Shown in pieces: positions 14,086-44,235 of a stretch of DNA of 64,000 nt. Every line of letters begins with the position of its first letter. The first letter of the stretch is position 1. The DNA comes from Macrostomum hystrix. Its lineage: Eukaryota; Animalia; Platyhelminthes. The stretch spans positions 31,248,001 through 31,312,000 of the forward strand of contig CATNEN010000038.1 of assembly GCA_950097015.1 (NCBI GenBank), read 5' to 3'. The position numbers were made by a program, and so were the translations under genes. A model generated the notes under the pieces. The model saw only the letters and a program-made list of their open reading frames with translations. It ran no database searches and was not told the DNA's origin.

Positions 14086-15743
14086 TCCAGTCCACTGCCT
14101 TCAGTCCACTGCCTCCAGTCCACTGCCTTCAGTCCACTGCCTCCAGTCCACTGCCTCCAGTCCACTGCCTCCAGTCCACTGCCTCCAGTCCACTGCCTCC
14201 AGTCCACTGCCTACAGTCCGCTGCCTCCAGTCCACTGCCTATAGTCCGCTGCCTACAGTCCACTGCCTCCAGTCCACTGCCTATTGTCCACTGCCTACAG
14301 TCCACTGCCTATAGTCCACTGCCTCCAGTCCACTGCCTCCAGTACACTGCCTCCAGTCCACTGCCTACAGTCCACTGCCTCCAGTCCACTGCCTCCAGTC
14401 CACTGCCTATAGTCCACTGCCTCCAGTCCACTGCCTCCAGTCCACTGCCTCCAGTCCACTGCCTATAGTCCACTGCCTATAGTCCACTGCCTCCAGTCCA
14501 CTGCCTACAGTCCACTGCCTCCAGTCCACTGCCTCCAGTCCACTGCCTCCAGTCCACTGCCTATAGTCCACTGCCTCCAGTCCACTGCCTATAGTCCACT
14601 GCCTACAGTCCACTGCCTATAGTCCACTGCCTATAGTCCACTGCCTACAGTCCACTGCCTCCAGTCCACTGCCTATAGTCCACTGCCTCCAGTCCACTGC
14701 CTATAGTCCACTGCCTACAGTCCACTGCCTACAGTCCACTGCCTTCAGTCCACTGCCTCCAGTCCACTGCCTATAGTCCACTGCCTCCAGTCCACTGCCT
14801 ATTGTCCACTGCCTACAGTCCACTGCCTATATATAGTCCACTGCCTCCAGTCCACTGCCTCCAGTACACTGCCTCCAGTCCACTGCCTACAGTCCACTGC
14901 CTACAGTCCACTGCCTATAGTCCACTGCCTATAGTCCACTGCCTACAGTCCACTGCCTACAGTCCACTGCCTCCAGTCCACTGCCTACAGTCCACTGCCT
15001 CCAGTACACTGCCTACAGTCCACTGCCTCCAGTCCACTGCCTCCAGTACACTGCCTCCAGTCCACTGCCTACAGTCCACTGCCTACAGTCCACTGCCTAT
15101 AGTCCACTGCCTATAGTCCACTGCCTCCAGTCCACTGCCTCCAGTCCACTGCCTATAGTCCACTGCCTCCAGTCCACTGCCTATTGTCCACTGCCTACAG
15201 TCCACTGCCTCCAGTCCACTGCCTACAGTCCACTGCCTCCAGTACACTGCCTACAGTCCACTGCCTATAGTCCACTGCCTTCAGTCCACTGCCTCCAGTC
15301 CACTGCCTCCAGTCCACTGCCTATAGTCTGCTGCCTACAGTCCACTGCCTCCAGTCCACTGCCTATTGTCCACTGCATACAGTCCACTGCCTATAGTCCA
15401 CTGCCTCCAGTCCACTGCCTCCAGTACACTGCCTCCAGTCCACTGCCTATAGTCCACTGCCTCCAGTCCACTGCCTCCAGTACACTGCCTCCAGTCCACT
15501 GCCTCCAGTCCACTGCCTCCAGTCCACTGCCTATAGTCCACTGCCTATAGTCCACTGCCTCCAGTCCACTGCCTCCAGTCCACTGCCTATAGTCCACTGC
15601 CTATAGTCCACTGCCTCCATTCCACTGCCTACAGTCCACTGCCTCCAGTCCACTGCCTCCAGTCCACTGCCTATAGTCCACTGCCTCCAGTCCACTGCCT
15701 CCAGTTCACTGCCTCCAGTCCACTGCCTATAGTCCACGGCCTC
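14086..15743 (+). repeat. 14-bp satellite, array 4
   Basis: Tandem repeat read directly. Confidence 0.97.
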
Positions 15744-18163
15744 TAGACTACTAATTAAGGAAACGTGTAAAGGTTCATTGGCTCTTTCGTTGGTATAACA
15801 ATTTAGATTTATCATTACGTTAGTACGTTAGTCTTTATCAAAGTTGATTTTTAACAGAAAAACAAAATCTTTTGGATTAGAAAAACTGGATGCTATTAAA
15901 CATATAGAATAGGATTATAAAAAAGCAAAAACTGATTAATCTGGACGAGCTTTTTTCTGAGTAAGTAAAACTAATAAAACCAGAGCAAAAGGTTTATGGT
16001 TTACTAAATCTCGCTGTGCTCAAACGGACTGTAGGTTATTTTTATTCAAGTTATGGAATTTTTGGCAGTGTAAGTTTTATTCCCTCTAGTATTGTCTACT
16101 TTTTTGAGAACTCAATAGGCCGATTACATAACAATCAATTTAAATGACCAATTTAAGTTTGATTTTTAGAGTGTGTGTCTGGTTTCATTATGTTATAGCA
16201 TTAATAAAAATCTGGATGTTCGGTAAAACAATGGACTCTAAATATCTCTAAGTATTGTTGGGAATAAAATCGAAATATCAACTTGTACGGTAGAGCAGCA
16301 GCTAGCCTAGCTTGTTAACAATAGAAAGACCACCAAGACGCCAGGGGAAACAGCGTGGTCTTCCTATTGCTCAGAATTCTAAAGGCGAGTAGTAGATTTG
16401 GTTATTTATTCACTGTGCAGGATAGAGTCAATTAAGATATTCTCAAAGTAGCTGACTCAAAATGTCTCAAAAGTATTACAGCTCGAAGAATGTTGAAGAA
16501 ACGGCCAGAGTCCTAAAATCACCTGAACGATGTAACAATGTACGGTCGGACGCGACTGCAGCAGAGCAACAGCTAGTATCTACAAAGAGTAGCAGGAGGC
16601 GACCATACATCAACTAACAAAAGATGTGATACATTAACAACATGATAAATAAGTTGCTTGTAAAAGTACGTTAGCTGTTTATATTTATGAGTTAAGCTCA
16701 AAGACTGCTAAATGAGTGGTGTTTAGCAGGCATTGCTTTTTATGTCACCAAGGGTCAACCGTGTTAACTAAGGGCTGCAGGTAGCTTTTGTTTGCTTGTA
16801 GGCCAACTAAAATATGCTGCTGGATATATCACCAAAAACTTAAAATAACGGGACGCTATCCGGCATGTTTTTAGAATAATGTTCCCAGGATCCTCAAAAG
16901 CCTTAGACTGTTGTACATAACTGTAGAAAAAAAAGTAATATACTTACCCGTCGCATTGGCTCATCATTGAATCATTGAACAAATGACGTATATAGCAAAG
17001 GTGATTTAGCATGACCGAATTGTGATTTTATTCTTATCGCATATTTAGCGCCAGTAGGTTTTTTACGGCAAAACATCTTCATTTAAACTTTTCCCTGAGA
17101 TTTCCTTCAAATCTTTGCTGAGGATTCAGCAGCATCGATGCACTTTTCGCTTGTATAGCAGGCGACCTCAAAAACCGGGCCAGAACTGACATTGAACGCA
17201 TCTGTTCACCTCTGAACCGCGATGAGGTGAGCGTCAATTAATCCGAGAGAACTTTGCACGTTCTCATGAAAAAACTATTTGGCAAACGTCTCGCTCGATC
17301 ATAATATAGCTCGTACATTGGCGAATTGTCTTCGGATAAGAACAACAAAGAATGATGTCCTTTTCAACGCAGGTTGAATTCCTCGAATTCTTAATTTCAT
17401 TAGACTCGAATAATGCAGTAAATTGCATGTCTTCATTTCGATTCAGAATCAAATTTGCCTCGAGAACCATGATCAATAGGCGTCACGTAGAAGTTAGGAA
17501 ATTTCCGATTTCTCTGGAGCACTCTTGAAGGATATGTTTTGTACTCGTAATGGTACAAATCAGTACCACTACCGAAATCAGTACCGGAGCAAGGTCAGCT
17601 TGCTAGTTTACCACCGTCGACCATTACTAGTTGCGGCTGAGTGATGAAATGTCTCGGAGTTCACCAAGACCGGACTAGCTGGTCTCAAATGTTTGTCTCT
17701 GGTCTCTGTAAATAGTCAGAACGTCTGTTTGTTTATGAAGCGTACTTGAGGCGAAATTTTAGGTATCACGGGCCAGGGTTATAATAGACCATTCCAGATT
17801 GGCAACCAATGAAACGCGTTTCAAAGTAAGCGATTTCTGTCAGTCATGGTTCCGGATAGAGATCAGCAACGATTGTAGCAATCAGAATTTACGAACTGAA
17901 AATCTTTCGCTTTCACAATAATGTATATCGAGTCCTACAATTTTGCAGAGAGAAGTTGTTTGAAATCATACTGTCGCACTATACTACTAGAATTTCGACG
18001 AAAAAATCCAAAAACTGCACCAAGCAAGACGAGCCAAATAAAAACGAAAAAGCTAGCGACTTAATCCAACTCTAACGTGAGATAAAAGTATTTTAGCGAA
18101 AGCTATTAGGTAAAACGTGCAGGGTGTTAAAAACGATAATGAGACTTTCTGTTTGTCTGAAAG

Positions 18164-20212
18164 CTAAATTGAAACAAGCAGAGTGCCCTTTATGAAGGCT
18201 CTGCAAATCGGGCAGGTCTTGAGGGACTTGGCGCACACTGAGCAGCAGACCACGTGACCACAGTCCAGAAGCGTGATATTCACCTCCTTGTCCATGCACA
18301 CCTTGCACGTCTTCCAGTCGTTTATATCGCGGGGTCTCGGCTGCTGATTCAGAGGCTCCTTGATCTCGGCCAGTCTGCTCTCGAAGAATGTCTCGGGATC
18401 CTGCGACTGCTGGCGCATGCGGCGGCTCTCGGTGAGCATGAAGTCGAGGAACAGCTCCGATGTGGCAAAGTCGTCGCCTCGCTGTCTGAGATGCAGCTCT
18501 GTGAACAGACGGACTTGCAGAGCAGAGAATCCGAGCTGAGTGAGCAGTCTCACAACCGGCAGATCAGCCCTCGCCTTGATGTCTCTGGCCTCGACTCTGA
18601 ACTCAACTCCACGCGTGATTGCGAGCGCCTCGTCTGTGCGACTGCTGCGGACTGCGGAGGAGCCGCCGACACTCACCGCCGAAGCTGCAGCTGACGGATC
18701 GGGTGAGTCTCTCTGCACCGATGCAGCAGCACGATGAGCAACAACTCCGACCTTCGATACGGGAGGCGACACGGGAGGCGACAGTCGGTGCACCGCCTGC
18801 ACAAAGTCGCTGCCTCGCTCCAACAACACGTGAGCACAGCGAGGTGACCACCGTGCGTGCTGCACCCACACATCATCGTCGCAGCTCCACTCACTCATGC
18901 GGAGTCCACAGCTGAAGCAGCAGGTCGCTCTCTCTTCACTCGAGAAGAAGCCCGCCTTCGCCAGCAAGTACACCGGCTGCGGAACGAGCGCCGATCGCAG
19001 AGACTTTGATCTCTCTTGGTAGCTCTCGAACTGCTCATGTTTGGCAGTCACACTCGATGGGTCCGTCTCCAGACTGTGCTGCAGAGCGGACAGGTTCGTG
19101 AGCGCTCTCTCGGAGCACGCGGATCGAGCCACCTCGCTTGACACTGCCAGCCGAGGACGCCTCGTCAGGTCGAGTGAGATGAGCTCGTCATGAGCAGCAG
19201 CACTCGGTGATCCGTACTGAGCTCGAGTCCACCTCGATCTCACTCCGTCTGTCGCCATCGCCCACTCCGAAATCTCAGTGGGCTCCATGGGAGGCAGCTC
19301 AGAGATCAGCCTCATGCTCCAGTCTCCGCTCACCATCACTGCCTCGGCATGTGCGGTGTGCTCAGTGCACTGTACTGCCTCCACCTGCACTGCCGACCTC
19401 GCCTCTCCTTCTGGCTCTCTGTGCTCTCGGGGCACGTTGCCCACATCGACGAACAGCACGAACGGACAGGTCGAGAAGTGGCGTCTGTGAGCCTCTCGCA
19501 CCTGCTCACCCGCCTCCCAGTCCTTGAGCACACCCTTGCAGAAGGCGCACTTCACTCTGTCCGACTCCTGCAGGTAGAAGAATCCGTCAGCAGCCAGATC
19601 CGTCACTGACACCAGGTGAGACGCAGTGAATGACGCATCAGGCAGGTGGAAGGACTGCCACCTGTTGTCCTCACGTCTCATGTCCCACAGGTGCTGAGGA
19701 ATGGAGGCCGGCATTCCAGTCGTGTCCCATCGCTGATTGCGGAAGTCCAGAGTCTGAGGCACGGACTGAGCTCTGCCGCCAGGTGTGCCGTTGTTGTAGT
19801 ACCTCAGCACCTTGCCTTTTGCTGTTACTTCCAGCTTTTCATGATTTTGTTGGAGAGCGCTTTTGTTTTGATTTGTTATTCGCGACATTCTTTCCTTTGA
19901 TAGTTGTGCTGTTGCTATTGACATTAGGCAAATAAATGTTGTAGTTACTAGTGCCATTCTTTCCTCAACAAGTTTGTTTATCGATTCTGGAGAGTCATTT
20001 TTAGTAAAGTTTGTGCTGGTTATTTCAGCCGCAAAGCATATCACGCTTTTGCTGTTTTGTTGTTGGATAAGAATATGAAAGTTCTCCTTCAGTTTGGGAA
20101 ATTGTCCGAAATCTTTAGGAAATGATTCTCTTCCGTATTTATTATTGCTGTTTGTATCATATTTCTCTGAAAACAATATGCCGTGAAGATTATTAGCCTG
20201 CTTCGCATCCAT
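18164..20212 (-). CDS. Inhibitor of apoptosis protein (BIR-BIR-RING E3 ligase), paralog 1, intronless
   Basis: BIR1 (LAADGFFY..DRVKCAFC..W..H..C), BIR2 (LAKAGFF..CFSC..W..HARWSPRC) and a C-terminal RING (CKVC..CGH..CCSVC..CPICR). First ATG is at 20212; the ORF track starts at TTG 20242. Confidence 0.95.
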   Translation of the reverse strand: MDAKQANNLHGILFSEKYDTNSNNKYGRESFPKDFGQFPKLKENFHILIQQQNSKSVICFAAEITSTNFTKNDSPESINKLVEERMALVTTTFICLMSIATAQLSKERMSRITNQNKSALQQNHEKLEVTAKGKVLRYYNNGTPGGRAQSVPQTLDFRNQRWDTTGMPASIPQHLWDMRREDNRWQSFHLPDASFTASHLVSVTDLAADGFFYLQESDRVKCAFCKGVLKDWEAGEQVREAHRRHFSTCPFVLFVDVGNVPREHREPEGEARSAVQVEAVQCTEHTAHAEAVMVSGDWSMRLISELPPMEPTEISEWAMATDGVRSRWTRAQYGSPSAAAHDELISLDLTRRPRLAVSSEVARSACSERALTNLSALQHSLETDPSSVTAKHEQFESYQERSKSLRSALVPQPVYLLAKAGFFSSEERATCCFSCGLRMSEWSCDDDVWVQHARWSPRCAHVLLERGSDFVQAVHRLSPPVSPPVSKVGVVAHRAAASVQRDSPDPSAAASAVSVGGSSAVRSSRTDEALAITRGVEFRVEARDIKARADLPVVRLLTQLGFSALQVRLFTELHLRQRGDDFATSELFLDFMLTESRRMRQQSQDPETFFESRLAEIKEPLNQQPRPRDINDWKTCKVCMDKEVNITLLDCGHVVCCSVCAKSLKTCPICRAFIKGTLLVSI

Positions 20213-23236: not shown

Positions 23237-26039
23237 GTGCACTATGTCAACATGGACACTAAGCCTCATACTTTTTACCCCGGAACCAAACTGGGGAGTT
23301 TCCAGCCGATGGAGACGCGGTCGCTAATGCAAGTTGAGTCAGTGAACGACCAAGAAATCGAGCATGGACCCGATGTTGTAGCGCAAGTGCATATCGATGA
23401 GAAAAATCTGACAGCCAATCAAGCCCGGAGTGTCAAGGACATGCTGCATCAGTACCGGGATGTTTTCTCAAAGAGTCGAACGACCTGGGCTGCACTACAC
23501 TGCTGGACCACAAAATCGACACGGGGTCGGCGCAGCCCACCCGAGTACTTCCTCGGCGGTTATCGCCTCCGAACCAGCGAGTGGTGTCGGAGATGGTCGA
23601 TCAGATGGTGCGTGATGACATCGTAGAGCCGTCGAGTTCTCCATGGTCGAGCCCAGTCATCCTGGTGAAGAAGAAGGACGGTTGTTTGCGTTTTGTGAGC
23701 GATTTCAGACTGCTTAACTCTGTGACGGTGAAGGACAGTCATCCACTGCCTCACACCAGCGATCTGATCGACGCCTTGGCGGGATCCACGATGTTTTCGA
23801 CACTAGATTTCACCAGCGGCTACTCTCAGGTGATGTAGGACTCGGAGAGTCGTGAAAAAACTGCATTTCCTGAGCCACAGGGATTAATTGTTCCAGTACA
23901 AGAGGCTGCCTCAAGGAGTCTGCAACGGGCCTGCCACATTCTCGAGACTGATGGAACTCGTGCTGAAGGTTCTTCGATGGGAAGTGTGTCTATCATTTCT
24001 CGATGACGTAGTCATATTTTCGAAAGGATTCGAGGAGCATCTTCGTAGACTTCAGCTTGTGCTGCAGAAATTTAGAACCGCAAATCTGAAGTTAAAGCCG
24101 ACGAAGTGCCACTTGTGCTATCAAGAAATATCTTTTCTTGGCTTTCGAATCTCCAAGGACTGTGTGACAACTGATCCGGACAAGGTAAAGGCAGTACAGG
24201 AGTAACCAACGCCTGAGGACCGTTCAGAAGTGCGGCAGTTTCTGGGGCTGTGCGGCTACTATCGGCAGTTCGTCAAAAACTACAGCGAGATTGCTGCGCC
24301 ATTGTACAAACTAACGCAGAAGGATGTGGCTTTCAACTGGTCTCCGGAGTGCTCAGCGGCATTCAATCAACTGAAGCAGTGCCTGACATCCAGCCCGGTC
24401 CTCATCATGCCGACATTCGCAGAAGACGCCAAGTTTGCGCTGGACACCGATGCCTCCGGCGTGGCTATCTCAGGAGTTCTGCAGGAGCGCCGTGGTGACA
24501 GGACGCAGGTGGTGGCGTACGGCAGTCGAATCCTGTCCAAGGCAGAACGAAATTACTGCACAACGAGACGAGAGTTGCTGGCAATTGTGCACTTCGTCGG
24601 CCACTATCGCAGCTATTTGCTGGGAAAGAAATTCACCCTGCGCAATGACCACGCATCCCTGATTCATTTGCTGCGTTTCTGAGATCCTGATGGTCAGCTG
24701 GCCCGGTGGAGCAATCGGAGCAATCGGCAGCGGCAGCTTCTGTCCGAGTTCCAGCGGCTGACGCTCGTAGGCGGTCTGCTGTGCCGCCGGTGGGAGTCAG
24801 ATGATGGCAGCGCCCTTTGTCAGCAGCTGCTGGTGCCGGAAAGTCTGCAGCACGATGTCTTCGCCGAAGCTCATGCTGGAACGAGCGGCAGCCACTGCGG
24901 TCCGCAGAAGACCATCAAAAAAATCAGGGCGCGACTCTGCTGGCCTGGAATGACACCAGACGTGACTAACTGGTGCGCCACGTGCAGCGAATGCGCGAGA
25001 CTGAAGGACTCCGGTCAGCACAGGCGGGCGCCTCTGCAGAGCATGGCGGTCGGCAGCGTTGGTCAGCGACTGGAAATGGACTTCATGGTGGGCTTGCCGA
25101 GAACTGAGCGAGAAAATTCAGTTATCCTGGTCGTCATCGACACCTTCAGCAAATGGACCGAGGCCTTCCCACTGCCATCCCAAGACGCTGAGACTACAGC
25201 CCGCACATTTTTCAACGAGTGGGTGGCTCGCTTCAGAGTTCCGGAGTCAGTGCACACGAACCAGGGCCGGAACTGGGAGTCGCAGTTGTTTAAAGAGACG
25301 ATGCAGATGTTGCAGCAATGCAGATCGACAAAACGCGGACGACAGGCTATCACCCTGAAGGAGACGGCGGCTGTGAACGGATGAACCGGACGCTGGTGCA
25401 GCTGCTGCGAGCCTGGGTGAACGAGAACCAGCGAGACTGGGACCTTCATCTGCAGATTGCACTCATGGGGTACCGCACTTCAGTGCACAAGTCAACTAGT
25501 CAGACACCCTCGGCGATGCATCTCGGCCGGGAACTGCGGCTGCCACTGGACTTGGCCTACGGAGGTCTGGCACCTGACGACCGCCGCCCGTGCGAGTGGG
25601 TGGCCAAACTGCGGACCCGCATGCAGACGTCGCACGAGAGGGCGAGGCAAAGCCTGGAGACAGCGCAGCTGCACCAGAAGGTGGAGTACGACAAGCGGTG
25701 CCTCGGCGAAGTTTCAGCGAGGGCGATCTGGTCTGGCTACACAATCCAGCACTCAAGCAAGGTGAGTGCCGCAAATTTCACCGCTGGTGGACCGAGCCAT
25801 GGCGAATTAAAAAGAAAATTTCGGAGGTCATCTACCGCATTCAGCTTGAGACCAACGCGCGGAAGAAGCGGGTCGTGCACTTCAATCGCCTGAAGTCCTG
25901 CAAGGCGGCCAGTCCAGTCGGCGCCCCAGTCGGCGCCCCAGCCGCCGCCCCAGCCAGCGCTCCTATCGTTGTCGAATTGCGTCGCAGTGAAAGGACCCGT
26001 GCTCCTCCAGAGTTTTTCGGTGAAGTTTATACCCATTGA
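23237..26039 (+). pseudogene. pol: Ty3/Gypsy pol remnant (RT-RNaseH-integrase) with stops and frameshifts
   Basis: RT motifs SPWSSPVILVKKK, LPQG and FLDD. RNaseH motifs TDASG and ERNYCTTRRELLA. Integrase HH-CC, MDF..DTFSKW and ERMNRTL. Domain order is Gypsy. Split across several ORFs. Confidence 0.95.
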
Positions 26040-29608: not shown

Positions 29609-31582
29609 TTAATGCATTATGAAAACCACAGCCCTGATAAAGGCTCTGCAAATCGGGCAGGTCTTGAGGGACTTGGCGCACACCGAGCAGCAGACCACGT
29701 GACCACAGTCCAGGAGTAAGATGTTCACCTCCTTGTCCATGCACACCCTGCACGTCTTCCAGTCGTATGTATCGCGGGGTCTCGGCTGCTGATTCAGAGG
29801 CTCCTTGATCTCGGCCAGTCTGCTCTCGAAGAATGTCTCGGGATCCTGCGACTGCTGACGCATGCGGCGGCTCTCGGTGAGCATGAAGTCGAGGAACAGC
29901 TCCGATGTGGCAAAGTCGTCGCCTCGCTGTCTGAGATGCAGCTCTGTGAACAGGCGGACTTGCAGAGCAGAGAATCCGAGCTGAGTGAGCAGTCTCACAA
30001 CCGGCAGATCAGCCCTCGCCTTGATGTTTCTGGCGTCGACTCTGAACTCAACTCCACGCGTGATTGCGAGCAACTCGTCTATGCGACTGCTGCGGACTGC
30101 GGAAGAGCCGCCGACACTCACCGCCGAAGCTGCAGCTGACGGATCAGGTGAGTCTCTCTGAACCGATGCAGCGGCACGATGAGTAACTCCGACCTTCGAC
30201 ACGGGAGGCGACAGTCGGTGCACCGCCTGCACAAAGTCGCTGCCTCGCTCCAACAACACGTAAGCACAGCGAGGTGACCACCGTGCGTGCTGCACCCACA
30301 CATCATCGTCGCAGCTCCACTCACTCATGCGGAGTCCACAGCTGAAGCAGCAGGTCGCTCTCTCCTCACTCGAGTAGAAGAAGCCCGCCTTCGCCAGCAA
30401 GTACACCGGCTGCGGAACGAGCGCCGATCGCAGAGACTTTGATCTCTCTTGGTAGCTCTGGAACTGCTCATGTTTGGCAGTCACACTCGATGGGTCCGTC
30501 TCCAGACTGTGCTGCAGAGCAGACAGGTTCGTGAGCGCTCTCTCGGAGCACGCGGATCGAGCCACCTCGCTTGACACTGCCAGCCGAGGACGCCTCGTCA
30601 GGTCGAGTGAGATGAGCTCGTCATGAGCAGCAGCACTCGGTGATCCGTACTGAGCTCTTGTCCACCTCGATCTCACTCCGTCTGTCGCCATCGCCCACTC
30701 CGACATCTCAGTGGGCTCCATGGGAGGCAGCTCAGAGATCAGCCTCATGCTCCAGTCTCCGCTCACCATCACTGCCTCGGCATGTGCGGTGTGCTCAGTG
30801 CACTGTACTGCCTCCACCTGCACTGCCGACCTCGCCTCTCCTTCTGGCTCTCTGTGCTCTCGGGGCACGTTGCCCACATCGACGAACAGCACGAACGGAC
30901 AGGTCGAGAAGTGGCGTCTGTGAGCCTCTCGCACCTGCTCACCCGCCTCCCAGTCCTTGAGCACACCCTTGCAGAAGGCGCACTTCACTCTGTCCGACTC
31001 CTGCAGGTAGAAGAATCCGTCAGCAGCCAGATCCGTCACTGACACCAGGTGAGACGCAGTGAATGACGCATCAGGCAGGTGGAAGGACTGCCACCTGTTG
31101 TCCTCACGTCTCATGTCCCACAGGTGCTGAGGAATGGAGGCCGGCATTCCAGTCGTGTCCCATCGCTGATTGCGGAAGTCCAGAGTCTGCGGCACAGACT
31201 GAGCACTGCCACCAGGAGTGCTGTTGTTGTAGTACCTCAGCACCTTGCTTGTTGCATTTTGAATCATGGTTCTGCTATCAATTAAGCCTATCGAATCTTC
31301 CTGTCTAAGGGCAGCAGCAATTAGCATTCGTCGCTTGTTCATTTCCTTGTCTGCGATGGCTATCAAATGGAGAATAGTAAGCCAAGTTTTCGAATCATGG
31401 TGTGCTGCTGCATTGTTCTGCTCTTGGTTCTCGACTTGTTGTTGGATAGCTCGAGAATTTGGTTCAGAAATTCGCGCATTTTGGTCTGCAGAAGCTCTTC
31501 TGCTAGAACTAGGCCTATAAGTTCCTTGGCGCCATGTTTCTGTTCGCTCTAAATTGTCACGAATGTTCCGTCTGCTAGACAT
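29609..31582 (-). CDS. Inhibitor of apoptosis protein (BIR-BIR-RING), paralog 2, intronless, 657 aa
   Basis: Same BIR and RING motifs as paralog 1. ATG start and an intact ORF. Confidence 0.95.
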   Translation of the reverse strand: MSSRRNIRDNLERTETWRQGTYRPSSSRRASADQNARISEPNSRAIQQQVENQEQNNAAAHHDSKTWLTILHLIAIADKEMNKRRMLIAAALRQEDSIGLIDSRTMIQNATSKVLRYYNNSTPGGSAQSVPQTLDFRNQRWDTTGMPASIPQHLWDMRREDNRWQSFHLPDASFTASHLVSVTDLAADGFFYLQESDRVKCAFCKGVLKDWEAGEQVREAHRRHFSTCPFVLFVDVGNVPREHREPEGEARSAVQVEAVQCTEHTAHAEAVMVSGDWSMRLISELPPMEPTEMSEWAMATDGVRSRWTRAQYGSPSAAAHDELISLDLTRRPRLAVSSEVARSACSERALTNLSALQHSLETDPSSVTAKHEQFQSYQERSKSLRSALVPQPVYLLAKAGFFYSSEERATCCFSCGLRMSEWSCDDDVWVQHARWSPRCAYVLLERGSDFVQAVHRLSPPVSKVGVTHRAAASVQRDSPDPSAAASAVSVGGSSAVRSSRIDELLAITRGVEFRVDARNIKARADLPVVRLLTQLGFSALQVRLFTELHLRQRGDDFATSELFLDFMLTESRRMRQQSQDPETFFESRLAEIKEPLNQQPRPRDTYDWKTCRVCMDKEVNILLLDCGHVVCCSVCAKSLKTCPICRAFIRAVVFIMH

Positions 31583-32498: not shown

Positions 32499-32672
32499 GG
32501 GGTGAGTGGCAGAGCGGCCTCTCGCACCAAGGTCCCTTAGTTCGACTCCGCGGCGAGACCACATTCATTTGGGGCGCAGCCGCGGAGAGAAGGCTTTGCG
32601 GCTTGTCGTGCAGTTCAAGCCCACGAGGGCCAACCTCCAAGGCACAGTGAAAGTGTACATTGCTTGACAATA
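32499..32672 (+). mobile_element. tRNA-like SINE family 2, 5' part (3' part continues at 42356)
   Basis: Matches the copies at 42922 and 62055 (TGGCAGAGCGG..CTCGCACCAAGGTCCC..TCGA..CACATTCATTTGG). Confidence 0.8.
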
Positions 32673-32987: not shown

Positions 32988-35311
32988 TGAAATAGTGCGG
33001 GTCTTTTGCAAGCCGATGACCGCCCTCATGAAAGATAGGAGTGTGGAAGACGACGATAGAGTCGGAGGTCGATCGCTGCTGCCGCGAGTTGTCGCAGAGA
33101 GGGATGACGAAGGGAGGGATGAAGGGAGAGATGAAGGGAGAGATGAGGCGGTACAAAGGATGCAAGTGAGTGGTCCTATTGGCCTCAGGCTGGCCAGTCC
33201 CACCCAACCCATAGGCCACAGGCATGACTGCCGTGCCCACCCCAAGCAGTGCTCGAAACCGGCTAAAAGTCTAAATAGATGTCGGACTACCCGCAAGCGA
33301 ATAGGACAGGGCTAGATAGCCTACTGTCATCAGTAGCATGTTCGTAACTGACTCCTAACTTTGGTAGCAGTGGTCGACTCGGCCTAGGCTCTTGTCTTAG
33401 AAATGCGGAAAGGCTATCGGCAAAGCGGATAATGATCGAAGGTAGCGCCACCACCCAATGCGCCTACGTTGCCACCGCAGACATTTGGGAACTTGGGTCC
33501 CCGGAGCTCGCGGCTCCCAGTTTGTCACACAGATCTTAGACAAGCCGAAAAATAGAGCATTCTGTAACTTCCGTTTTAGACTAGGGTGAGAACCCCAGAA
33601 TGGATCGAGTCACGCCTCACAAGGGGATTCCTGAAACTGCGCTACAGTGGTCTAGAAAGGTGGTACTCCGAACCCGAATGAGAAATCCATAGCCAGAATC
33701 CTACTCATGAGACATTAGACACATTCCTTACATTAGATTGCAGCCTACACATTGAATAACTAGCAAATCCGAATCTGTGTGAGATGAGGAAATCAGAGGC
33801 AGGAGAGATTGAGCAGAACACTGGCTGAGTGATTATGCAAGCGGTGATTATTAGATCACACCCCCTCGCTCCCATGGCGGCGGCAGCGAGAGGCGGGGAA
33901 CAGAAGGGAAACATTAATTGACAAGGGAGGTTGACACGCACTCCTTGATCTGCCAGAAAGAGAGGAAAAACCCGCCAAGGAATTCCCCCACCCCTAGCAG
34001 AGAAACACATGCTACGCTCCGCATATTACTCGCAAATCCCTAGCTCCTTATTACTCTCATGCGCGCTCACAGTTATCCTCCTGCCGCAGCTTTCAGCTAG
34101 GCATCACCAGAGCCCATCCCCCTAATAAGTTAGCCACTCATGATCGAGGGCTGTCTAACGATAAAATAAGAGAAAGTGAAATGCATAGTAAAAAGGATTT
34201 AAGTTGTTATTAAATTGCCCAATAAATTAGATAAGTTGTGAATTAATAGTTTTATTAGGCTAAATCAAATCCCTGCCCTTGCCCTTTTACCCACTAGCTA
34301 AATAGTAAATCCCTTAGGGATAGCAATAACAGTCCGCTGCGCGGGTTACTTATCTGACTACGCTGGTTGACAGGCTGCAGGTCGTCGATCTCGCGGGGGA
34401 ATGCAAATGAACGGGAGAAAAGGTGAGGGATTGCTGAGTACAGTTGGCAAGGGGCCAGACTGCAGGGAGCTCAAGGCTCAATTTGGAGCGCACCTAAGGA
34501 GGTGGCTTGCGCTTAAGGGCACTAGCAGGTAGTTGCCTGCTGCTATGCTCTGGAGCCTTAGGCTCAGGGACTAGGTGCTAGCCTAGAAGGGGGAGGGTCC
34601 ACGGACCGAGTTCCGGGACCGGACAAGGGAAAAAGGTTGTAAGGGCGGAAAAGGTAGGTTCGGGGGAAGGTTGTCCTAGGGGCAGCGCAGCGCGCTCTCT
34701 TAAATAGTCCTGCAGCTCCGCCAACCTCGCATTCATCAAAATAACCCACATGCTCGCCGGCCTGTCAGCGAGGAATCGGGTCGGCATAATGCCACCCCAA
34801 TTGCCCACTGAAGCGGCGGCGAGAATCGCCAGATGCCCCACTAGGAGCGTCTGCCGGCAGTCGGCCAATGATTGTGATCCCGCCGGGATATGGGAAGCGC
34901 AGGCGCCGACCTGCCTATAGTGTCGTTACATGTATCTAAAGGGGGAAAGGTCATAATCGAGCTTCGGCTCGGGTTACAGTAAAGAAGAGGGACATGAAGA
35001 ATTAAAGCTCACTCTAAACGCATGAGTGATCCCGACAATCTGATCGCGGTTTGGAGGGGAATTATAACCTAAACTAGTCCATACAGTATTGCTATTTCCG
35101 CGATCAGTCACTCCTACAGGGGACTAGACAGATCCGAGACAAAGGGAATCGGCGGCTACTTAATTCACCTCCGCCCCAAGTCTGGCCCTAAGATTAATGA
35201 TGGTGTTCTGCGGCCAGCTGCTATGTGGGTCGCGATTATTGACTTGCTAAAAATTGGAAAAATTCGGCTGGCTCACATTCCCACTCGATTCCCGCAGCAC
35301 ACTCCACATCA
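32988..35311 (-). repeat. 3' LTR, with TATA-like TATTTAAG at 34706-34699 and AATAAA at 34256-34251 (minus strand)
   Basis: Direct repeat of 40027-42349. Confidence 0.95.
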
Positions 35312-35330
35312 CTCCACCTTCGCTCACTTT
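35312..35330 (-). promoter_or_regulatory. Polypurine tract AAAGTGAGCGAAGGTGGAG
   Basis: Purine-rich run directly before the TG of the 3' LTR. Confidence 0.8.
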
Positions 35331-36215
35331 CACGTAAGACACTTACGTGCCTACTGACAGTAGTAGCGGGGTGTCTCGAGAATCGAGGGGAAAAATAATA
35401 AAAATTTCCTACAACATACTGTACAGAACCCTAAGAAGAATTCCGCTAGAGAAGAAATCCTAATGCGTACGTACGTACGGTTACTATAAATAGATTGGTG
35501 CGTGAGTATAAAATGGTCGGCGCCCCTAGTGATTACGGTATAGCGTCCTATGGGGGGTGGGTGCGCATTCCGTTCGCGGTAAAGTTGCCCTTGGTGACCG
35601 CGGGGTGTGCCTTGTCCCGGCCCGCCTTCTTCTCCAGGTGGTCGCAGCTGTGCCCATCTTCTCCTGCCCGGCTTGGTCTCGGTTGCGCAATCCTGGGAGG
35701 CTCTGGCCGTCTTTCCTTGAGTCCGAGGGGTCCGGCCGTGCTCTCACCAGGTGGTTCCAGATTGGCTGGCCCGTTTTGCGTCCTCACCGATCCTGTTGCC
35801 GGGCGTTGGTAGCCTCTGATTCGCCGCGCGCTCCAGGTGTTTCCGGCTGGCCGTGCCCTAGAATGCTCGCCGGGCCGGTTGCCTAGCCGTTGCGCGCGGT
35901 CCAATCGGCGCTGCAGCTGGTCGCAGCTGGGGAAACCGCTGCTCGGCCGCTTGTGGTGCTGTTGCCGACCGAGGTGTCTCCTCACCGAAAAGGTCAGAGC
36001 CCCAACAACTAAACTATTACCACGGGCCCCCTGAACTGGTTCTGCCCGGAATTCCCACTTTGCTCCCATTGGCTGGCGATTAGACCGCCACCATGACCCT
36101 TAACTAAGTGCTATAAAAACAATCACTTAACGCCCCATTAAACTCAAGCTGCTATCTTTCCCAGAGAAATAAAAAGAAAACCTCGAAATTTCCTCCGATA
36201 TCTTCTGCTGCTAAC

Positions 36216-36890
36216 ATGAGAACTACTGCCCGCCCGATGATGCCACGCTTAGAGGATCAGCCTCTGCCTGGAGAAGAAAGGTGAGTTGTTTTTGCTTCCA
36301 CTCGGCCCCCCAAGGCCGGTTATTAATGGGTTATTACAAGGTTAATTGCATAATAATAGAAACGAATGTAATTACTGCCCCCGGCACGCCGTTTTATCCC
36401 GAGAAGTTGGGATTGACCCCGACCCGGGACTGCGAAAAAGGAACCCTTCCTGAGTTAATGATTGATTAAATTGAAAGTTACTTAGTCTGCGATTGCCACC
36501 ACTATTCTTCCACTCCTAATCGGACTACACCACTCTTCGCTTTCAGCAGCTACCCGCTCGGTGCTTTCGAGCCGGAGCCTCGGCGCCGGGCCAGCTCAGG
36601 CGGTCCCATCTCTGTCTCGTTTGTGATGAGTAAGTTGGCATTGATAAAACTACACTTCCCCCCCTCCACTCTGGATGTCACCATTTGAAACTTCTGCCTG
36701 CAGAACGCCACTGCGCCTTACTAAACTACTCCTCCACCTTGTTTTCGCAGACATAGACGTGCCCGAAGGCCGGGAGGCCGACCTGGCGGCCATCGTTTCT
36801 AGCCTCATTAGAGGCCCGCTGGGCGTGGCCCTGGCTGTCGGAGTGGCCTTCACTGCTCTTGCGCTGCTGACCCTGATCTACTTGCTGTGA
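36216..36890 (+). CDS. Antisense three-exon cargo gene (36216-36280, 36547-36629, 36751-36890), 95 aa, C-terminal transmembrane helix
   Basis: Donors GTGAGT and GTAAGT, acceptors TTTCAG and TTTTCGCAG, branch-like CTAAT/CTAAA. Phases 2 and 1 match. 65+83+140 = 288 nt. Confidence 0.7.
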
Positions 36891-37402
36891 CACTGTCCTA
36901 CTATGCCTACTGACTCGCCGTGCCGGGCTTACTGACTGACCTAACTGCATGCATTTCTGCCATCTCTTATAATGCCACATAATACATTACAACATAAACG
37001 CCACCATTTGAAACGTAAAACGAAAATTTGCTATCTGTGTCCGACTTCCTTCCTAGATGAAACATTACTGCTCAAATTTTACGACTGCCTAGTAACAAAA
37101 AAAACTAACTGATAGACTGTCAATGAGTTTTTAAAACGTCTGGAACCTTAATTCCTACGATTTATTACTATTCTACCCTTCCAGGTACCTAGATTTGGGC
37201 TCCCAGCTGCTAGCTTCTGGCTCCCAGATAATGTTTCTTTTTGTCTTTTCTAACCCTAACAAAAGAAAAATTATCATTTTGAAATCTGTCGCTCATTGAA
37301 ACAGCCAGATTGTCTCCCCTAGAACTTGAATACCTGACCCTACCGGCTTCTTGATTTACAACCGCCCACTCTTTAAACAAACATTAAGAAAAACTCCCGA
37401 AA

Positions 37403-38020
37403 CATACCACCCCGCTCACTTTAGCGGGTTGGTATACCCCCTAAATAGAAACCGGTATAGCTAAACTCCCGAAACCAAGCATAGAGAACATGTAAGATAA
37501 GCAAGTTTTGCGAAAAGTAGGTGCGAACCCTAGTTTGCGGCAGTTATTACGAAAAAGTTTCATGCGAAAATTCTTACGAAGGGGAATTTCACCCCACTAA
37601 ATATGTTTTTGGATTTTGATTAGTTTATATAAGTTTTTAAGAGGTTTTGGCGCCGAGATGGCCTTTTTTTGATTTGAACCGCCTTCCCACCCTTAAAGAA
37701 AGCATAGAATTTCCCAAGGCATACCACCCCGCTCACTTTAGCGGGTTGGTGTCCCTCCTAATTTAGAAGTTGTCCTAAATTGAACTCCCACAGACCCACC
37801 AATATGAACAAGATAAGGCAGAGGTGCCATGCATGATGTGGTGCGATTAAAGTAAAATGCTCTTTAAGAAAAGGTGCATGCCCTAGATTGCTACAATTAG
37901 ATAGGCATCTCATGCGAAAAAGTACTAGGGGAATTTCACCCCACTAGGTATGTTTTTGGGTTTCTGGCTAAATTATAAGAATTTTTATGAGATTTTTGTG
38001 CCAAGGCGGCTTTGATGAAA
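37403..38020. repeat. Diverged tandem duplication (317-bp period) with conserved hairpins, inside the LTR element
   Basis: ATACCACCCCGCTCACTTTAGCGGGTTGGT at 37404 and 37721. CATGCGAAAA..GGGGAATTTCACCCCACTA is also repeated. Confidence 0.85.
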
Positions 38021-38166
38021 AAGGAAGGCGTGCACAATAGGAGAAAAGGAGCAAAAAGGGTAACAGAATGGGGGATCGCTTCCCCAACGAGGTCTCCAGT
38101 GGGGCTCGGTCGCCTAGCACGGCCGGGTGAGTGCTTCGGGGCACCCGCAGCGGGAGCTACCTTTCC

Positions 38167-38718
38167 CTAGCCTGGGTCGTGGCCGTTGGTATTTACCTGC
38201 GCAGCAGCGGACCTCAGGCGGTCGGCGAATGAGGCATATGATTCGCCTCGGTCCTGCCTCAGGTTGCGCCCGCTGAGGAGCCGGGCATAGGGGGTGCAGG
38301 CGCCGCTGAGGGCCTCGGTCAGGTCCTGCACGAACCGGAGATAGGTCACGCGGCGCGGCAGGGTCATCGCTTGGGTTAGGGGTTCACCGCCTAGGTGGGC
38401 CAGCAGGGTGAGGATTTTCTCCCCTTCTGTTTCCAAGCCCTCAGCCTCAACCTTCAGGTTAAACCGGCGCAGCCAGCGGGGAAAAGAGTCTGCTGCCGAT
38501 TCGAATGGTTCCAGGGCAACTTTCACCCTGTGAGTTCTTGCTCGACGCGGCTCTAGACGCTCCATCAGGGAGGCTAGGCGCTCGATGGGGTCCCCTTGAT
38601 TGGCGGCTGCAGCTGCTGCTGCCGCTGGGGGATCGGCGCGCGCTGCGGCAGCAGCGCGGCCTCTAGGTGGGCGGGGGGCGCCGATGGCCTCGACGACCTC
38701 ATCCTCCTGGTCGGACAT
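38167..38718 (-). CDS. gag: Short Ty3/Gypsy-type Gag (capsid only, 183 aa, no zinc knuckle)
   Basis: LEPF..FPRWLRRF, K..LLAHLGG and MHR-like LRQDRGESYASFADRLR. Lies in sense orientation, downstream of the PBS. Confidence 0.8.
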   Translation of the reverse strand: MSDQEDEVVEAIGAPRPPRGRAAAAARADPPAAAAAAAANQGDPIERLASLMERLEPRRARTHRVKVALEPFESAADSFPRWLRRFNLKVEAEGLETEGEKILTLLAHLGGEPLTQAMTLPRRVTYLRFVQDLTEALSGACTPYARLLSGRNLRQDRGESYASFADRLRSAAAQVNTNGHDPG

Positions 38719-40006
38719 TTTCGGCCAAAAGAGAAAATGAGGGTTTTGCGAATTGAAAAGGGGTGTTTGTCGCTAATGCAACAATGGGGAAGGAGAGAAA
38801 GGGGAGGCACGGATCACGACCGGGGGTCGTGCGAGAGGGAAAGAGAATGGGCCTGAGTTGTCAAATCCAGCCCTAATTAATGACGCGGGCAAATTCCCTA
38901 CTCCTAGCAAACAATCCTTCAGCAAAAATGAGATCAAAGATCAATGAGAGAGAAAAGGGCCCAGGGCCCTGGCTAGCTTTGCTTCCAGCCTTGGCTACCG
39001 ACAACTGCTTGCGCGCACTTAAGTTTGGGACATAGAAGTCTAGGTTTTAACTTAGCACTCATTCAGCAACCCTATAGCAGACTGTTACACTATAGGTACG
39101 GCGGGGCCAGTACTACTGCAAGCTTGCGCCTGCAGCAGCCTATCTCCCTACCTTGGAAAGTACGCGACTCAAAAAGTCATTCAAAGAAGGCTAATCCCCG
39201 ATTCGCTCAGAGGGCCCTTCCCGGTTGGGATGGCCGGGGGCTTCGCCTCCGCGATTTACGAGGCTGGGGATCCCAGGAATTATACATCTGAGACCTCGCT
39301 CGGTTAGGGGTCCGTGGCTTAGAGCCCGGTTTCTCCGTTTAGACCATCCCTCAGAGAGTTTCTTAGAAAGACGCGCCGACCGAATTCTAGCCCATACTTG
39401 AAGTAGGCAGTTTCGAGAGGCGGGCACGGGGGTCGCTAGACCTCCCTCAGAAGTCCCACCTCCCTAACTGTTCCCCACCAAAGTCAGACTTGGTCAAAGC
39501 TATGTGACACATTCAGAATCAGGTACACGTAAGCAGGCCCGCAAGCTGCCCAAGAGAACCAATCCCCGGTGCTCAGCGAGTCATCGATTCCCGGCTGCAT
39601 TGCCGGGGGCTCCCCTCGCTCGGTTAGAAGGCCGAACGGCGTTGCCCGGTCCCTCGTTAAGAATGGCCCCTCCCAGATCAGTCACGCGGGAAAACCCCAC
39701 AGACAGTCCCTGACTCCTGCAGCAGCCACTAACCCGAAGACACTCTAGCATGAAGTCCGCTCACACAGCCTACTCATAGTAGAAAGTCGCTAATCAGAAT
39801 TTTGGAAACTCTAACAAACGCCTAAATTAAATTGAAAACAAATCGTAACTGTTCGGAAATTAATTGACAGTCACTAGAACTGAGATAAGATTTCGGCATA
39901 CGGAAAATGAAATCTAGAAGAAGCCCTTACGGCTAACTACCCCAGAAATCTGCGGCGCTAAACTAACAATTGAAAAAAAATTCAGGTTCGTTTCGCGCCC
40001 TTTCTA

Positions 40007-40025
40007 AATCCCACCGCTGCCACCA
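40007..40025 (-). promoter_or_regulatory. Primer-binding site TGGTGGCAGCGGTGGGATT (tRNA-Leu)
   Basis: One nt after the CA of the 5' LTR. Complementary to the 3' end AATCCCACCGCTGCCA-CCA of animal tRNA-Leu(AAG/TAG). Confidence 0.9.
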
Positions 40026-40026
40026 T

Positions 40027-42349
40027 TGAAATAGTGCGGGTCTTTTGCAAGCCGATGACCGCCCTCATGAAAGATAGGAGTGTGGAAGACGACGATAGAG
40101 TCGGAGGTCGATCGCTGCTGCCGCGAGTTGTCGCAGAGAGGGATGACGAAGGGAGGGATGAAGGGAGAGATGAAGGGAGAGATGAGGCGGTACAAAGGAT
40201 GCAAGTGAGTGGTCCTATTGGCCTCAGGCTGGCCAGTCCCACCCAACCCATAGGCCACAGGCATGACTGCCGTGCCCACCCCAAGCAGTGCTCGAAACCG
40301 GCTAAAAGTCTAAATAGATGTCGGACTACCCGCAAGCGAATAGGACAGGGCTAGATAGCCTACTGTCATCAGTAGCATGTTCGTAACTGACTCCTAACTT
40401 TGGTAGCAGTGGTCGACTCGGCCTAGGCTCTTGTCTTAGAAATGCGGAAAGGCTATCGGCAAAGCGGATAATGATCGAAGGTAGCGCCACCACCCAATGC
40501 GCCTACGTTGCCACCGCAGACATTTGGGAACTTGGGTCCCCGGAGCTCGCGGCTCCCAGTTTGTCACACAGATCTTAGACAAGCCGAAAAATAGAGCATT
40601 CTGTAACTTCCGTTTTAGACTAGGGTGAGAACCCCAGAATGGATCGAGTCACGCCTCACAAGGGGATTCCTGAAACTGCGCTACAGTGGTCTAGAAAGGT
40701 GGTACTCCGAACCCGAATGAGAAATCCATAGCCAGAATCCTACTCATGAGACATTAGACACATTCCTTACATTAGATTGCAGCCTACACATTGAATAACT
40801 AGCAAATCCGAATCTGTGTGAGATGAGGAAATCAGAGGCAGGAGAGATTGAGCAGAACACTGGCTGAGTGATTATGCAAGCGGTGATTATTAGATCACAC
40901 CCCTCGCTCCCATGGCGGCGGCAGCGAGAGGCGGGGAACAGAAGGGAAACATTAATTGACAAGGGAGGTTGACACGCACTCCTTGATCTGCCAGAAAGAG
41001 AGGAAAAACCCGCCAAGGAATTCCCCCACCCCTAGCAGAGAAACACATGCTACGCTCCGCATATTACTCGCAAATCCCTAGCTCCTTATTACTCTCATGC
41101 GCGCTCACAGTTATCCTCCTGCCGCAGCTTTCAGCTAGGCATCACCAGAGCCCATCCCCCTAATAAGTTAGCCACTCATGATCGAGGGCTGTCTAACGAT
41201 AAAATAAGAGAAAGTGAAATGCATAGTAAAAAGGATTTAAGTTGTTATTAAATTGCCCAATAAATTAGATAAGTTGTGAATTAATAGTTTTATTAGGCTA
41301 AATCAAATCCCTGCCCTTGCCCTTTTACCCACTAGCTAAATAGTAAATCCCTTAGGGATAGCAATAACAGTCCGCTGCGCGGGTTACTTATCTGACTACG
41401 CTGGTTGACAGGCTGCAGGTCGTCGATCTCGCGGGGGAATGCAAATGAACGGGAGAAAAGGTGAGGGATTGCTGAGTACAGTTGGCAAGGGGCCAGACTG
41501 CAGGGAGCTCAAGGCTCAATTTGGAGCGCACCTAAGGAGGTGGCTTGCGCTTAAGGGCACTAGCAGGTAGTTGCCTGCTGCTATGCTCTGGAGCCTTAGG
41601 CTCAGGGACTAGGTGCTAGCCTAGAAGGGGGAGGGTCCACGGACCGAGTTCCGGGACCGGACAAGGGAAAAAGGTTGTAAGGGCGGAAAAGGTAGGTTCG
41701 GGGGAAGGTTGTCCTAGGGGCAGCGCAGCGCGCTCTCTTAAATAGTCCTGCAGCTCCGCCAACCTCGCATTCATCAAAATAACCCACATGCTCGCCGGCC
41801 TGTCAGCGAGGAATCGGGTCGGCATAATGCCACCCCAATTGCCCACTGAAGCGGCGGCGAGAATCGCCAGATGCCCCACTAGGAGCGTCTGCCGGCAGTC
41901 GGCCAATGATTGTGATCCCGCCGGGATATGGGAAGCGCAGGCGCCGACCTGCCTATAGTGTCGTTACATGTATCTAAAGGGGGAAAGGTCATAATCGAGC
42001 TTCGGCTCGGGTTACAGTAAAGAAGAGGGACATGAAGAATTAAAGCTCACTCTAAACGCATGAGTGATCCCGACAATCTGATCGCGGTTTGGAGGGGAAT
42101 TATAACCTAAACTAGTCCATACAGTATTGCTATTTCCGCGATCAGTCACTCCTACAGGGGACTAGACAGATCCGAGACAAAGGGAATCGGCGGCTACTTA
42201 ATTCACCTCCGCCCCAAGTCTGGCCCTAAGATTAATGATGGTGTTCTGCGGCCAGCTGCTATGTGGGTCGCGATTATTGACTTGCTAAAAATTGGAAAAA
42301 TTCGGCTGGCTCACATTCCCACTCGATTCCCGCAGCACACTCCACATCA
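40027..42349 (-). repeat. 5' LTR
   Basis: Direct repeat of 32988-35311, adjacent to the PBS. Confidence 0.95.
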
Positions 42350-42921: not shown

Positions 42922-43345
42922 GTGGTTGAGTGCGGTCTAACGCGTTTGTCTCTCGCACCAAGGTCCCTGAGCTCGATTCCGCGGCGAGGCCACATTCATT
43001 TGAGGCGCAGCCGCGGAGAGAAGGCTTAGAGGCTTGTCGTGCAATTGAGGCCCAACCTCCAAGGCTCAGTGAAGCTACACTGCCCGTCGATGAGAAAGTC
43101 AGGGCAGGTGTACACACCCTGTGTGAGTGTGTGCCTGCGTACAGTATCTGTCTACGTGCGTAAGTGTGTACTCAGGAGTCAGCGAAATGGGCAGAATTGC
43201 CTCTAGTATCTCAAAATCCTGCAATTATTGTTGCTGTCATTGTTATTAAAGCACTTTAGACAAAAATGTGATCATACGGTTTCTCATCGCATCGAGGTCC
43301 CCGAGCTCGATTCTGCGGTGAGGCCACATCTTCGTTTAAGGGCAC
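42922..43345 (+). mobile_element. SINE family 2 copy (to ~43240) plus a head fragment (~43280-43345)
   Basis: Similar to the copies at 32499 and 62055. Confidence 0.8.
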
Positions 43346-44235
43346 AGACGCGGAGAGAATACCTAGGCGTATGAAAATCTCATTTTTAATATTATAAGAA
43401 ATGTTATCATTACAAGCGCTATTGAATCATATTACTTCACTCGTGTTTTCTCCTAATAAAATAGTGTGCTTATAACCTATTTCTATAGTGCAGTCAAGCA
43501 GAAAAAATGTGCTTCGTTGTATAAATCAATTTTTGTTATAATTCATTTTAAACTGCCTCCCTACAGACTTGACTATTTACTAATTGCTTAGAAACTAGTA
43601 TATATACTCGTACATATTTCCGACTGCAGGCATTGTGACTTGATTGAAATTGAAATCTCATTTTTGCCTACGGGGGGAGAAATTTGTCAAAGAGCTAGCT
43701 GGAGTTCAATTTTAGTTGCTAAAGGCCCAGGTGTCATTTTATTTACTGCTGATTGGCTGCACGAACAGCTGAATTCGTGAGTGCGAACCAAGTGCAGGAT
43801 GACGGTGCACTCTTCTGCTTGCTTATTTGCCGGGGGCATGAAACCGAGATTTTGATGCATTTGTAGCATTCTTTCACGCAATTGGATTATATATTTCCAG
43901 AGACAGATGATAGCTACACGGATTAAGACTCGGTTTGAGTTGCAGCTTTGTTTACTGTTATCAGCTCAGCAAATCCGGGTGTACCCAGCCTGCTGGCGTA
44001 GAAATTCATTTCCTAGAAAACTTTACTGCGAAGAAACGACTGCACGTAATATTTATAACAAAATCGAAATCTAAGAAACAACTATCAAATGAAACTTTAA
44101 ATCCATCAGTTCCTGATCCACCCACACAAAGTAAAGCCGATTGCAGAATAAATCAGAAAAAAACACAAGAAATGCGAAATCTTCAGACTATATGATAATT
44201 TTTCCTTAAAATTATAGTCGAAATTACACATGAAT

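Follow-up and report, generated by a model that had tools for sequence, protein, structure and literature searches.

A probably expressed antisense gene for a predicted tail-anchored protein in a young, pol-less LTR retrotransposon of Macrostomum hystrix

The retroelement and its Gag

The window, i.e. the whole stretch of 64,000 nucleotides that was analysed, holds BIR-RING apoptosis-inhibitor genes, a tyrosine-kinase-type domain and an alpha/beta hydrolase as well as much tandem repeat. An LTR element of 9.4 kb without pol spans positions 32988-42349 on the minus strand, with LTRs of 2.3 kb. Besides the antisense gene described further below, it comprises the following parts:

32988..35311, minus strand: 3' LTR, 2324 bp, TG..CA (self-BLAST, LTR comparison)
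35312..35331, minus strand: polypurine tract, 17 of 20 purines, adjoining the 3' LTR (sequence)
37348..38013, no strand: two degenerate units of about 320-350 bp (self-BLAST, about 75%; repeats D2, D3 and D9)
38167..38718, minus strand: gag, 183 aa, with a complete capsid lobe (64-140) and one further helix (161-177), no zinc knuckle (atlas, phmmer, fold comparison)
40008..40025, minus strand: primer binding site, 1 base beyond the 5' LTR (sequence)
40027..42349, minus strand: 5' LTR, 2323 bp, with a TATA-like site at 41744 and AATAAA at 41294 (self-BLAST, sequence)

Self-BLAST returned a single long direct repeat in the element (32988-35311 and 40027-42349, 99.96% identity). The two LTRs differ by one 1-bp indel and by no substitution, which sets an upper bound of 0.13% (95%) on their divergence. 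This near-identity is indicative of a very young insertion. The target duplication TTAT has 4 bp and lies inside an (ATT)n run, such that its length is ambiguous. Paired TG..CA LTRs, a primer binding site (which we take to be of the tRNA-Leu type), a polypurine tract and a target duplication are all present, as is characteristic of LTR retrotransposons. Pol was absent between the LTRs, the longest stop-free frame in the 4.7-kb interior being at most 201 aa. Judged by sequence, the element is a non-autonomous one of the Ty3/gypsy type, where the gypsy label is taken from the Retrotrans_gag matches of Gag and its relatives. Pol, and likely also a full Gag, would come from a helper element that presumably mobilises it.

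Further repeats and fragments were seen in the window. Two intronless BIR-BIR-RING apoptosis-inhibitor genes, 18164-19822 and 29609-31582 (minus strand), are 96.6% alike over 1.6 kb and differ at their 5' ends. The remains of another gypsy-order element, an RNase H and integrase piece with a broken frame, lie at 24206-26039 on the plus strand; no link between this pol fragment and the element carrying the antisense gene was seen. Copies of one short interspersed repeat occupy 32499-32671, 42929-43359 and 62057-62554, two of them being inverted at 62083-62543, and large arrays of a 14-bp unit are nested in a higher-order repeat of about 4 kb at 2480-15900. Rfam gave a single sub-threshold tmRNA match, outside the element. 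Inside it, an exact 13-nt repeat (36679-36691 in intron 2 of the antisense gene and 37002-37014 in its 3' flank, the only two matches in the window) resembles the junction of primer binding site and LTR at 40020-40031.

The atlas neighbours of Gag are Retrotrans_gag clusters (0.92). Among 1.84 billion representatives HMMER/phmmer found one match, a 340-aa Gag with a CCHC knuckle (E 3.4e-8), via which one further relative was reached. The alignment to the 340-aa protein extends to residue 173, which leaves the Gag of the element with a single helix of the second lobe and without the knuckle. In a model based on the three sequences (pLDDT 63) residues 64-140 align to the capsid lobes of Arc, PEG10, Copia and retroviruses with Z 8-9, and for the dArc1 capsid a fold Z of 9.3 and an rmsd of 2.2 over 74 residues were obtained; the capsid fold thus extends over one complete lobe only. 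A Foldseek search with Gag gave nothing at E 0.001, with Arc and PNMA2 capsids ranked first. No Gag match was contained in the 7999 candidates of a word-indexed search, none of 540 and 348 pattern matches in metagenome contigs was confirmed as a related locus, and viral contigs (19 pattern matches) yielded none. The earlier note on this DNA, made from the letters alone, had spoken of a capsid-only element. This description is not supported, since Gag ends after the first helix of the second lobe and, unlike its relatives, has no zinc knuckle. Without a whole capsid of its own, the element needs a helper.

The stretch is present in four public runs of one study, for which the library type is not on record. 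High-depth contigs span the gag stop, one over 904 nt with 12 changes and 4 gaps and one over 621 nt with 6 changes, the latter being the same count as in pieces starting at 38296. That contigs of high depth cross the stop with few changes suggests that the short Gag form is common to related copies. In run X4, a relative about 81% alike in gag (window 37817-38481) continues for 1922 nt after the gag match compared to 208 nt in the window; this stretch may perhaps hold a fuller gag or another gene. A donor-like site, CAG|GTAAAT, was seen directly before the gag stop. By analogy, the truncated Gag, which is open and near-identical in the contigs, could modify or inhibit the capsids of a helper: Ty1 p22, half of Gag, acts as an inhibitor according to the accessible part of its description (PMC4599808).

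Structure and expression of the antisense gene

The antisense gene consists of three plus-strand exons that join in frame to 288 nt, i.e. 95 codons and a stop:

35761..36118, plus strand: likely promoter with CCAAT boxes at 35761, 35901 and 36068 and a TATA box at 36112 (motif scan)
36216..36280, plus strand: coding exon 1, 65 nt, ATG at 36216, codons 1-22, donor GTGAGT (sequence; donor, phase and ATG kept in relatives)
36281..36546, plus strand: intron 1, 266 nt, GT..AG, branch-like CTAAT at 36516 (sequence)
36547..36629, plus strand: coding exon 2, 83 nt, codons 22-50, donor GTAAGT, RRAS motif, in-frame ATG at 36626 (sequence)
36630..36750, plus strand: intron 2, 121 nt, GT..AG (precise removal in one contig of run X2)
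36751..36890, plus strand: coding exon 3, 140 nt, ending in TGA; amphipathic helix, Gly-Pro and C-terminal TM helix (hydropathy, moment, model, variants)
36981..36998, plus strand: candidate weak polyadenylation signals AATACA at 36981 and CATAAA at 36993 (motif scan)

The exons and splice signals were read in the earlier note at exactly these coordinates and with the same 95-codon protein. Its remark that an ORF scan sees the last exon only is also correct, as exon 3 with 45 codons is the sole continuous part. The LTR pair, primer binding site, polypurine tract and gag were found at the places it had implied, with the gene between minus-strand gag and the polypurine tract and antisense to gag. 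This is the arrangement of the antisense ORFs called aORF-3R, with the difference that no pol lies upstream here. Both donors read GTRAGT and both acceptors come with a pyrimidine tract and a branch-like motif. For exon 2 a second in-frame acceptor lies 3 nt downstream, at 36550. The GC3 of the antisense gene equals that of gag (0.69 for both), while the GC content of the introns is 0.46-0.49. From the motifs, a TATA promoter of its own near 36112 appears likely. A TATA box is likewise present in a diverged relative, directly behind 36091, and one relative has a canonical polyadenylation signal before 37060, both observed on single-contig loose ends.

Splicing was observed in run X2, in which a 125-nt contig (depth 8.7) consists of 36535-36629 (95 nt, 0 differences) followed by 30 nt from 36751. 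All 125 nt are accounted for, and intron 2, with its GT..AG ends, is excised to the base. Of the two junctions that had been put forward for checking, 36629/36751 was thus recovered exactly, in one contig from one of the four runs and with a short side of 30 nt compared to 31 in the bridging rule, while 36280/36547 was found in none of the four runs, the contigs of which drop rare forms. The junction contig starts 12 nt inside intron 1. Retention of this intron would cause a stop at codon 23 and leave a 47-aa product from Met49 as a possible form. Exon 1 is supported by conservation rather than by a junction.

On the genomic RNA, introns in antisense orientation read CT..AC and are not lost during retrotransposition. 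Since this holds for intron 2, its removal needs a plus-strand transcript, either now or at the time when an intron-less copy arose. The junction thus implies such a transcript; the evidence for an own promoter, another trait of aORF-3R, consists of motifs. Altogether, the antisense gene is probably real and expressed.

The opposite reading is that splice-like signals and a hydrophobic frame came together by chance. With strict splice rules, which were chosen with the target already known, a single two-intron chain was found on either strand of 35312-42349. Chains appeared in 1 of 1000 whole shuffles and 3 of 7636 block shuffles, and none in the 54.6 kb outside the element. Looser rules gave chains in 64/300 and 178/300 shuffles and in 1811/7636, and 30 false chains over the IAP genes; chains that also contained a hydrophobic helix occurred in 4/300, 7/300 and 51/7636 shuffles, and hydrophobic false chains arose antisense to the IAP genes as well. 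The sequence argument for the gene is therefore rule-dependent and suggestive rather than proof, and the read data decide. The many false chains under loose rules, some of them hydrophobic, favour the chance reading. Against it stand the exact junction contig, the constraint in relatives (see below) and the mere 3 of 7636 cases under strict rules. We regard it as largely refuted and as extremely unlikely.

Using loose splice rules only, a second plus-strand two-intron chain was seen inside the LTR at 40055-41163 (and also in the left LTR). It has donors at 40205 and 40625, an acceptor before 40995, 111-123 aa and a weak hydrophobic segment (KD 1.81). With comparable chains in 178/300 shuffles it is a lead only.

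Constraint in diverged relatives

Relatives of the element are represented by contig fragments from the same four runs, with 12 of 16 indels and 40 of 61 substitutions among those listed. All 12 listed indels are intronic, 11 of them in intron 1. They correspond to perhaps 4-8 events, which yields P values from 0.13 to 0.02. Diverged, mostly exonic pieces contain 0 gaps per 28 substitutions compared to 6 per 30 in the intron piece (Fisher P 0.026). None of the 40 listed substitutions touches a splice dinucleotide. Seven are exonic, of which four are synonymous and three (D52N, L68F, L95M) mild; the two listed in exon 2 are both synonymous. The synonymous fraction of 4/7 is not significant alone (expected 0.32, P 0.16).

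The membrane anchor is covered in two related variants, seen as single-contig continuations after 36847 and 36851. Across the anchor 14 of 30 bases are changed, yet the frame is kept and the residues of both variants are small or aliphatic plus Phe only. A null for anchor hydrophobicity gave 2.5e-4 and 1.3e-3 for the A/V/I/L/M/F set and 0.008 and 0.016 for a broad set; this null is simple and ignores transition bias, the counts were made by eye, and the two variants are related and not independent. At the other end of the gene, the exon-1 donor and its phase are kept in a diverged relative in 4/4 runs, and in another relative an in-frame ATG lies two codons ahead of the aligned sequence in 3/4 runs (both single-contig loose ends). 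Among the relatives whose ends are visible, contigs over 36773-36920 differ solely at 36885 in all four runs. In the form of contig fragments the gene is hence present in diverged copies, as for aORF-3R.

The variants also bear on the origin of the gene. A host gene could have been captured in reverse together with its promoter and introns and be carried along as a passenger, the constraint then reflecting the protein fold or a host benefit. Introns can persist only in this orientation, the anatomy of the gene is host-like and its GC3 resembles that of three neighbouring host genes (0.64-0.75). However, the contigs of the variants run on into element sequence (joints 36847/36851 to 36996/37030), and a search of a protein collection (5.8 billion), in which three neighbouring host proteins are not represented, with residues 36-80 of the exon-3 frame found no homologue among 11 candidates. 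We consider capture improbable.

No exon is covered by nearly as many relatives as the intron-1 stretch 36290-36326. This stretch could be a cis element of the genomic RNA; its folding was no better than that of shuffles (z -0.12). Such a stretch could also point to a role of the antisense transcript as RNA, by self-limiting double-stranded RNA or transcriptional interference, with the protein being incidental. In line with this, it is the piece most common to the relatives, intron 1 may be retained, and the available text of a review that allows for an RNA role mentions non-coding antisense transcripts of micropia, TART and IAP (PMC7264820). Frame, phase and hydrophobicity are kept despite base changes and the stretch folds no better than shuffles, both of which speak against an RNA role, such that we hold it to be quite improbable.

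With all evidence combined, the gene is very probably real and constrained at the protein level, and selection on the antisense protein is in itself highly probable. The claim of a maintained, spliced antisense gene in a young pol-less LTR element is thus upheld by the junction contig, the constraint in relatives and the identity of the LTRs.

The encoded protein, its possible role and known counterparts

Residues 1-42 of the protein are polar and rich in proline and include an RRAS motif. They are followed by residues 43-53 with a short alternating pattern, by an amphipathic helix at about 57-70 (hydrophobic moment 0.57 at 60-70) and by a Gly-Pro kink. The predicted TM helix (72-95) runs to the last residue, leaving no tail. 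Hydropathy peaks in the 19-residue window 77-95 (Kyte-Doolittle 2.44); all windows exceeding 1.6 start at residue 61 or later, and an N-terminal hydrophobic segment is lacking. A single-sequence AlphaFold2 model contains two helices (pLDDT 90). Hydropathy scan and model thus agree on one helix at the extreme C-terminus and on the lack of a signal peptide, as in tail-anchored proteins. This layout, together with Arg70 preceding the TM helix, makes an N-in tail-anchored topology with post-translational insertion rather likely.

The terminal helix expected in the earlier note was found by hydropathy and AlphaFold2. Searches by exon gave no Pfam family for any of the three at E up to 10, where the short exons provide low power. 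Exon queries had no match among PDB sequences, and in the atlas they matched at 0.83 or lower with recognition below threshold. Homology to the TRP28, SMC or DUF3716 of known antisense genes was not detected by Pfam searches per exon, again at low power, and a separate origin is likely from these comparisons. We class the gene as an antisense accessory gene on account of its position and conservation rather than of homology.

By analogy, we tentatively read the product as a tail-anchored, cytosol-facing adaptor for capsids or RNA-protein particles at an internal membrane, a role that is plausible though short of probable. The 95-residue protein would be made from the spliced antisense mRNA under its own TATA promoter near 36112 and would be inserted post-translationally by its C-terminal helix, with its body facing the cytosol. 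As a guess, its partner would be a capsid or particle, for which it would provide a site of assembly or traffic on membranes of the ER or nuclear envelope. The adaptor is favoured by the position at the env locus and by the retention of the gene along with gag after pol was gone. Against it, no observation links the antisense protein to Gag, and a separately transcribed mRNA has no cis preference for its carrier element, which is non-autonomous. Furthermore, the antisense accessory proteins characterised in the available text are nuclear, e.g. Grande GENE23 (PMC7264820).

The env position is shared by another proposal, the cell-to-cell transfer by fusion that the earlier note had considered: a small fusogen of the sORF2/FAST type would substitute for env and move particles between cells. 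With 95 aa the protein falls within the sORF2 range (63-107), and it has one TM and one amphipathic helix. The ectodomain-TM-tail layout, the myristoylation motif and the polybasic tail of sORF2/FAST (PMC11952523) are however lacking. Residue 2 is Arg instead of an MGxxxS/T start (some true members are also without this motif), the TM helix is terminal rather than central, with 71 residues before it compared to about 30 and none after it, and the stop follows the helix directly, leaving neither a polybasic patch nor a C-terminal tail. The gene is antisense, whereas 105 of 105 insect candidates are sense. Since no part is predicted to reach beyond the membrane, a fusogen is very unlikely and action is expected at the cytosolic face of a membrane.

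Such action could also be directed at the host. Located at the ER or mitochondria, the protein would then act on a host membrane protein and never on Gag, either as a micropeptide with a regulatory role or as a factor against host defence. Divergence seems to be faster in the gene region than in gag: over gag, contigs of high depth are about 99% alike, and contigs in 2/4 runs skip 36326-37061 at 85% likeness (separate pieces). A trans-acting product would fit a cell-wide job, and the RRAS kinase motif with the terminal helix is, as we presume, reminiscent of phospholamban. Planarian Burro elements with apoptosis-regulator domains, as described in the accessible part of the source (PMC6431247), point in the same direction. 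Against a host target speaks that no Pfam family (E up to 10), no PDB sequence and no atlas match above the threshold (at most 0.83) was found. We consider such a target possible but somewhat unlikely. It comes close to the adaptor; capture, an RNA-only role, a fusogen and chance follow in this order.

If the adaptor reading is extended, the gene would stand for a third type of membrane gene in animal LTR elements, located where env is otherwise found: antisense, intron-bearing, with its own promoter and a cytosol-facing tail anchor that docks and routes particles, possibly in vesicles between stem and germ cells, and kept under selection even by pol-less, capsid-truncated satellites. As a whole this is an unlikely, speculative proposal.

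Antisense accessory genes of LTR retrotransposons have no settled function, the characterised ones being nuclear and from plants or fungi. The present case is animal, very young, apparently spliced in vivo and putatively membrane-bound, and it hints at a membrane step of env-less elements other than those involving env or sORF2. Consensus ORF scans miss such genes, given that the 45-codon last exon alone is continuous, and RT-anchored surveys miss them for want of pol; they may therefore be under-counted. The RT-anchored survey of LTR families in M. lignano (PMC12801592) does not mention antisense, ORF, transmembrane or splicing in its available text. Its separate strand and own putative promoter make the gene separately targetable by strand-specific assays.

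Zebrafish BHIKHARI is a gag-only non-autonomous LTR element, and HTLV-1 HBZ is a spliced antisense accessory gene for a nuclear regulator. With plant TR-GAG, as far as described in the available text, the present element shares long LTRs, PBS, PPT and a gag ORF without pol; unlike such gag-only elements, it carries an additional, antisense gene, and its Gag lacks the knuckle and the greater part of the second lobe. HBZ has an antisense promoter in the 3' LTR (PMC7264820, available part) and starts in the LTR, whereas the putative promoter is internal here. CERV of Cer1 (PMC10309623, in part) is also a spliced accessory gene; its product is a nuclear regulator instead of a membrane protein.

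Among small membrane proteins, the sORF2/FAST-like proteins of the MDG1 group and other insect Metaviridae, in the accessible part of their description (PMC11952523), are similar in being single-pass, in having an amphipathic helix beside the TM helix and in belonging to env-less LTR elements. They are sense, unspliced, N-out/C-in and often myristoylated with a central TM helix and a polybasic tail, in contrast to the antisense, spliced gene with a terminal TM helix and no tail. Bdelloid rotifer ORF3s such as Vesta4 (PMC5408684) likewise are extra TM genes at the env position of an invertebrate element without env homology. They have 220-230 aa, two TM regions, cysteines and a furin site, and the accessible text describes neither antisense orientation nor introns.

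The closest arrangement is that of aORF-3R, the antisense ORFs between pol and the 3' LTR, which include maize Grande gene23, rice RIRE2, Silene Retand, bean PvRetro13 and Botrytis Boty brtn (PMC7264820, PMC11963269, PMC8365987; each in part). According to the available text their functions are unknown, and Grande gene23 has its own internal promoter and a nuclear product (PMC7264820). Position, antisense strand, presence in diverged copies and the lack of an outside homologue are shared with the gene described here, as is, for Grande, the internal promoter. Different are the animal element, the missing pol, the truncated Gag and the 95-aa membrane-anchored product, compared to products that are nuclear or bear TRP28 or SMC. 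The literature searched contained no animal LTR element with a spliced antisense gene for a membrane protein; Repbase reports and subscription journals, outside its coverage, may describe one. Antisense accessory genes at this position are thus known already from plants and fungi, and what sets the present case apart is the membrane anchor, the animal host and the pol-less, capsid-truncated carrier.
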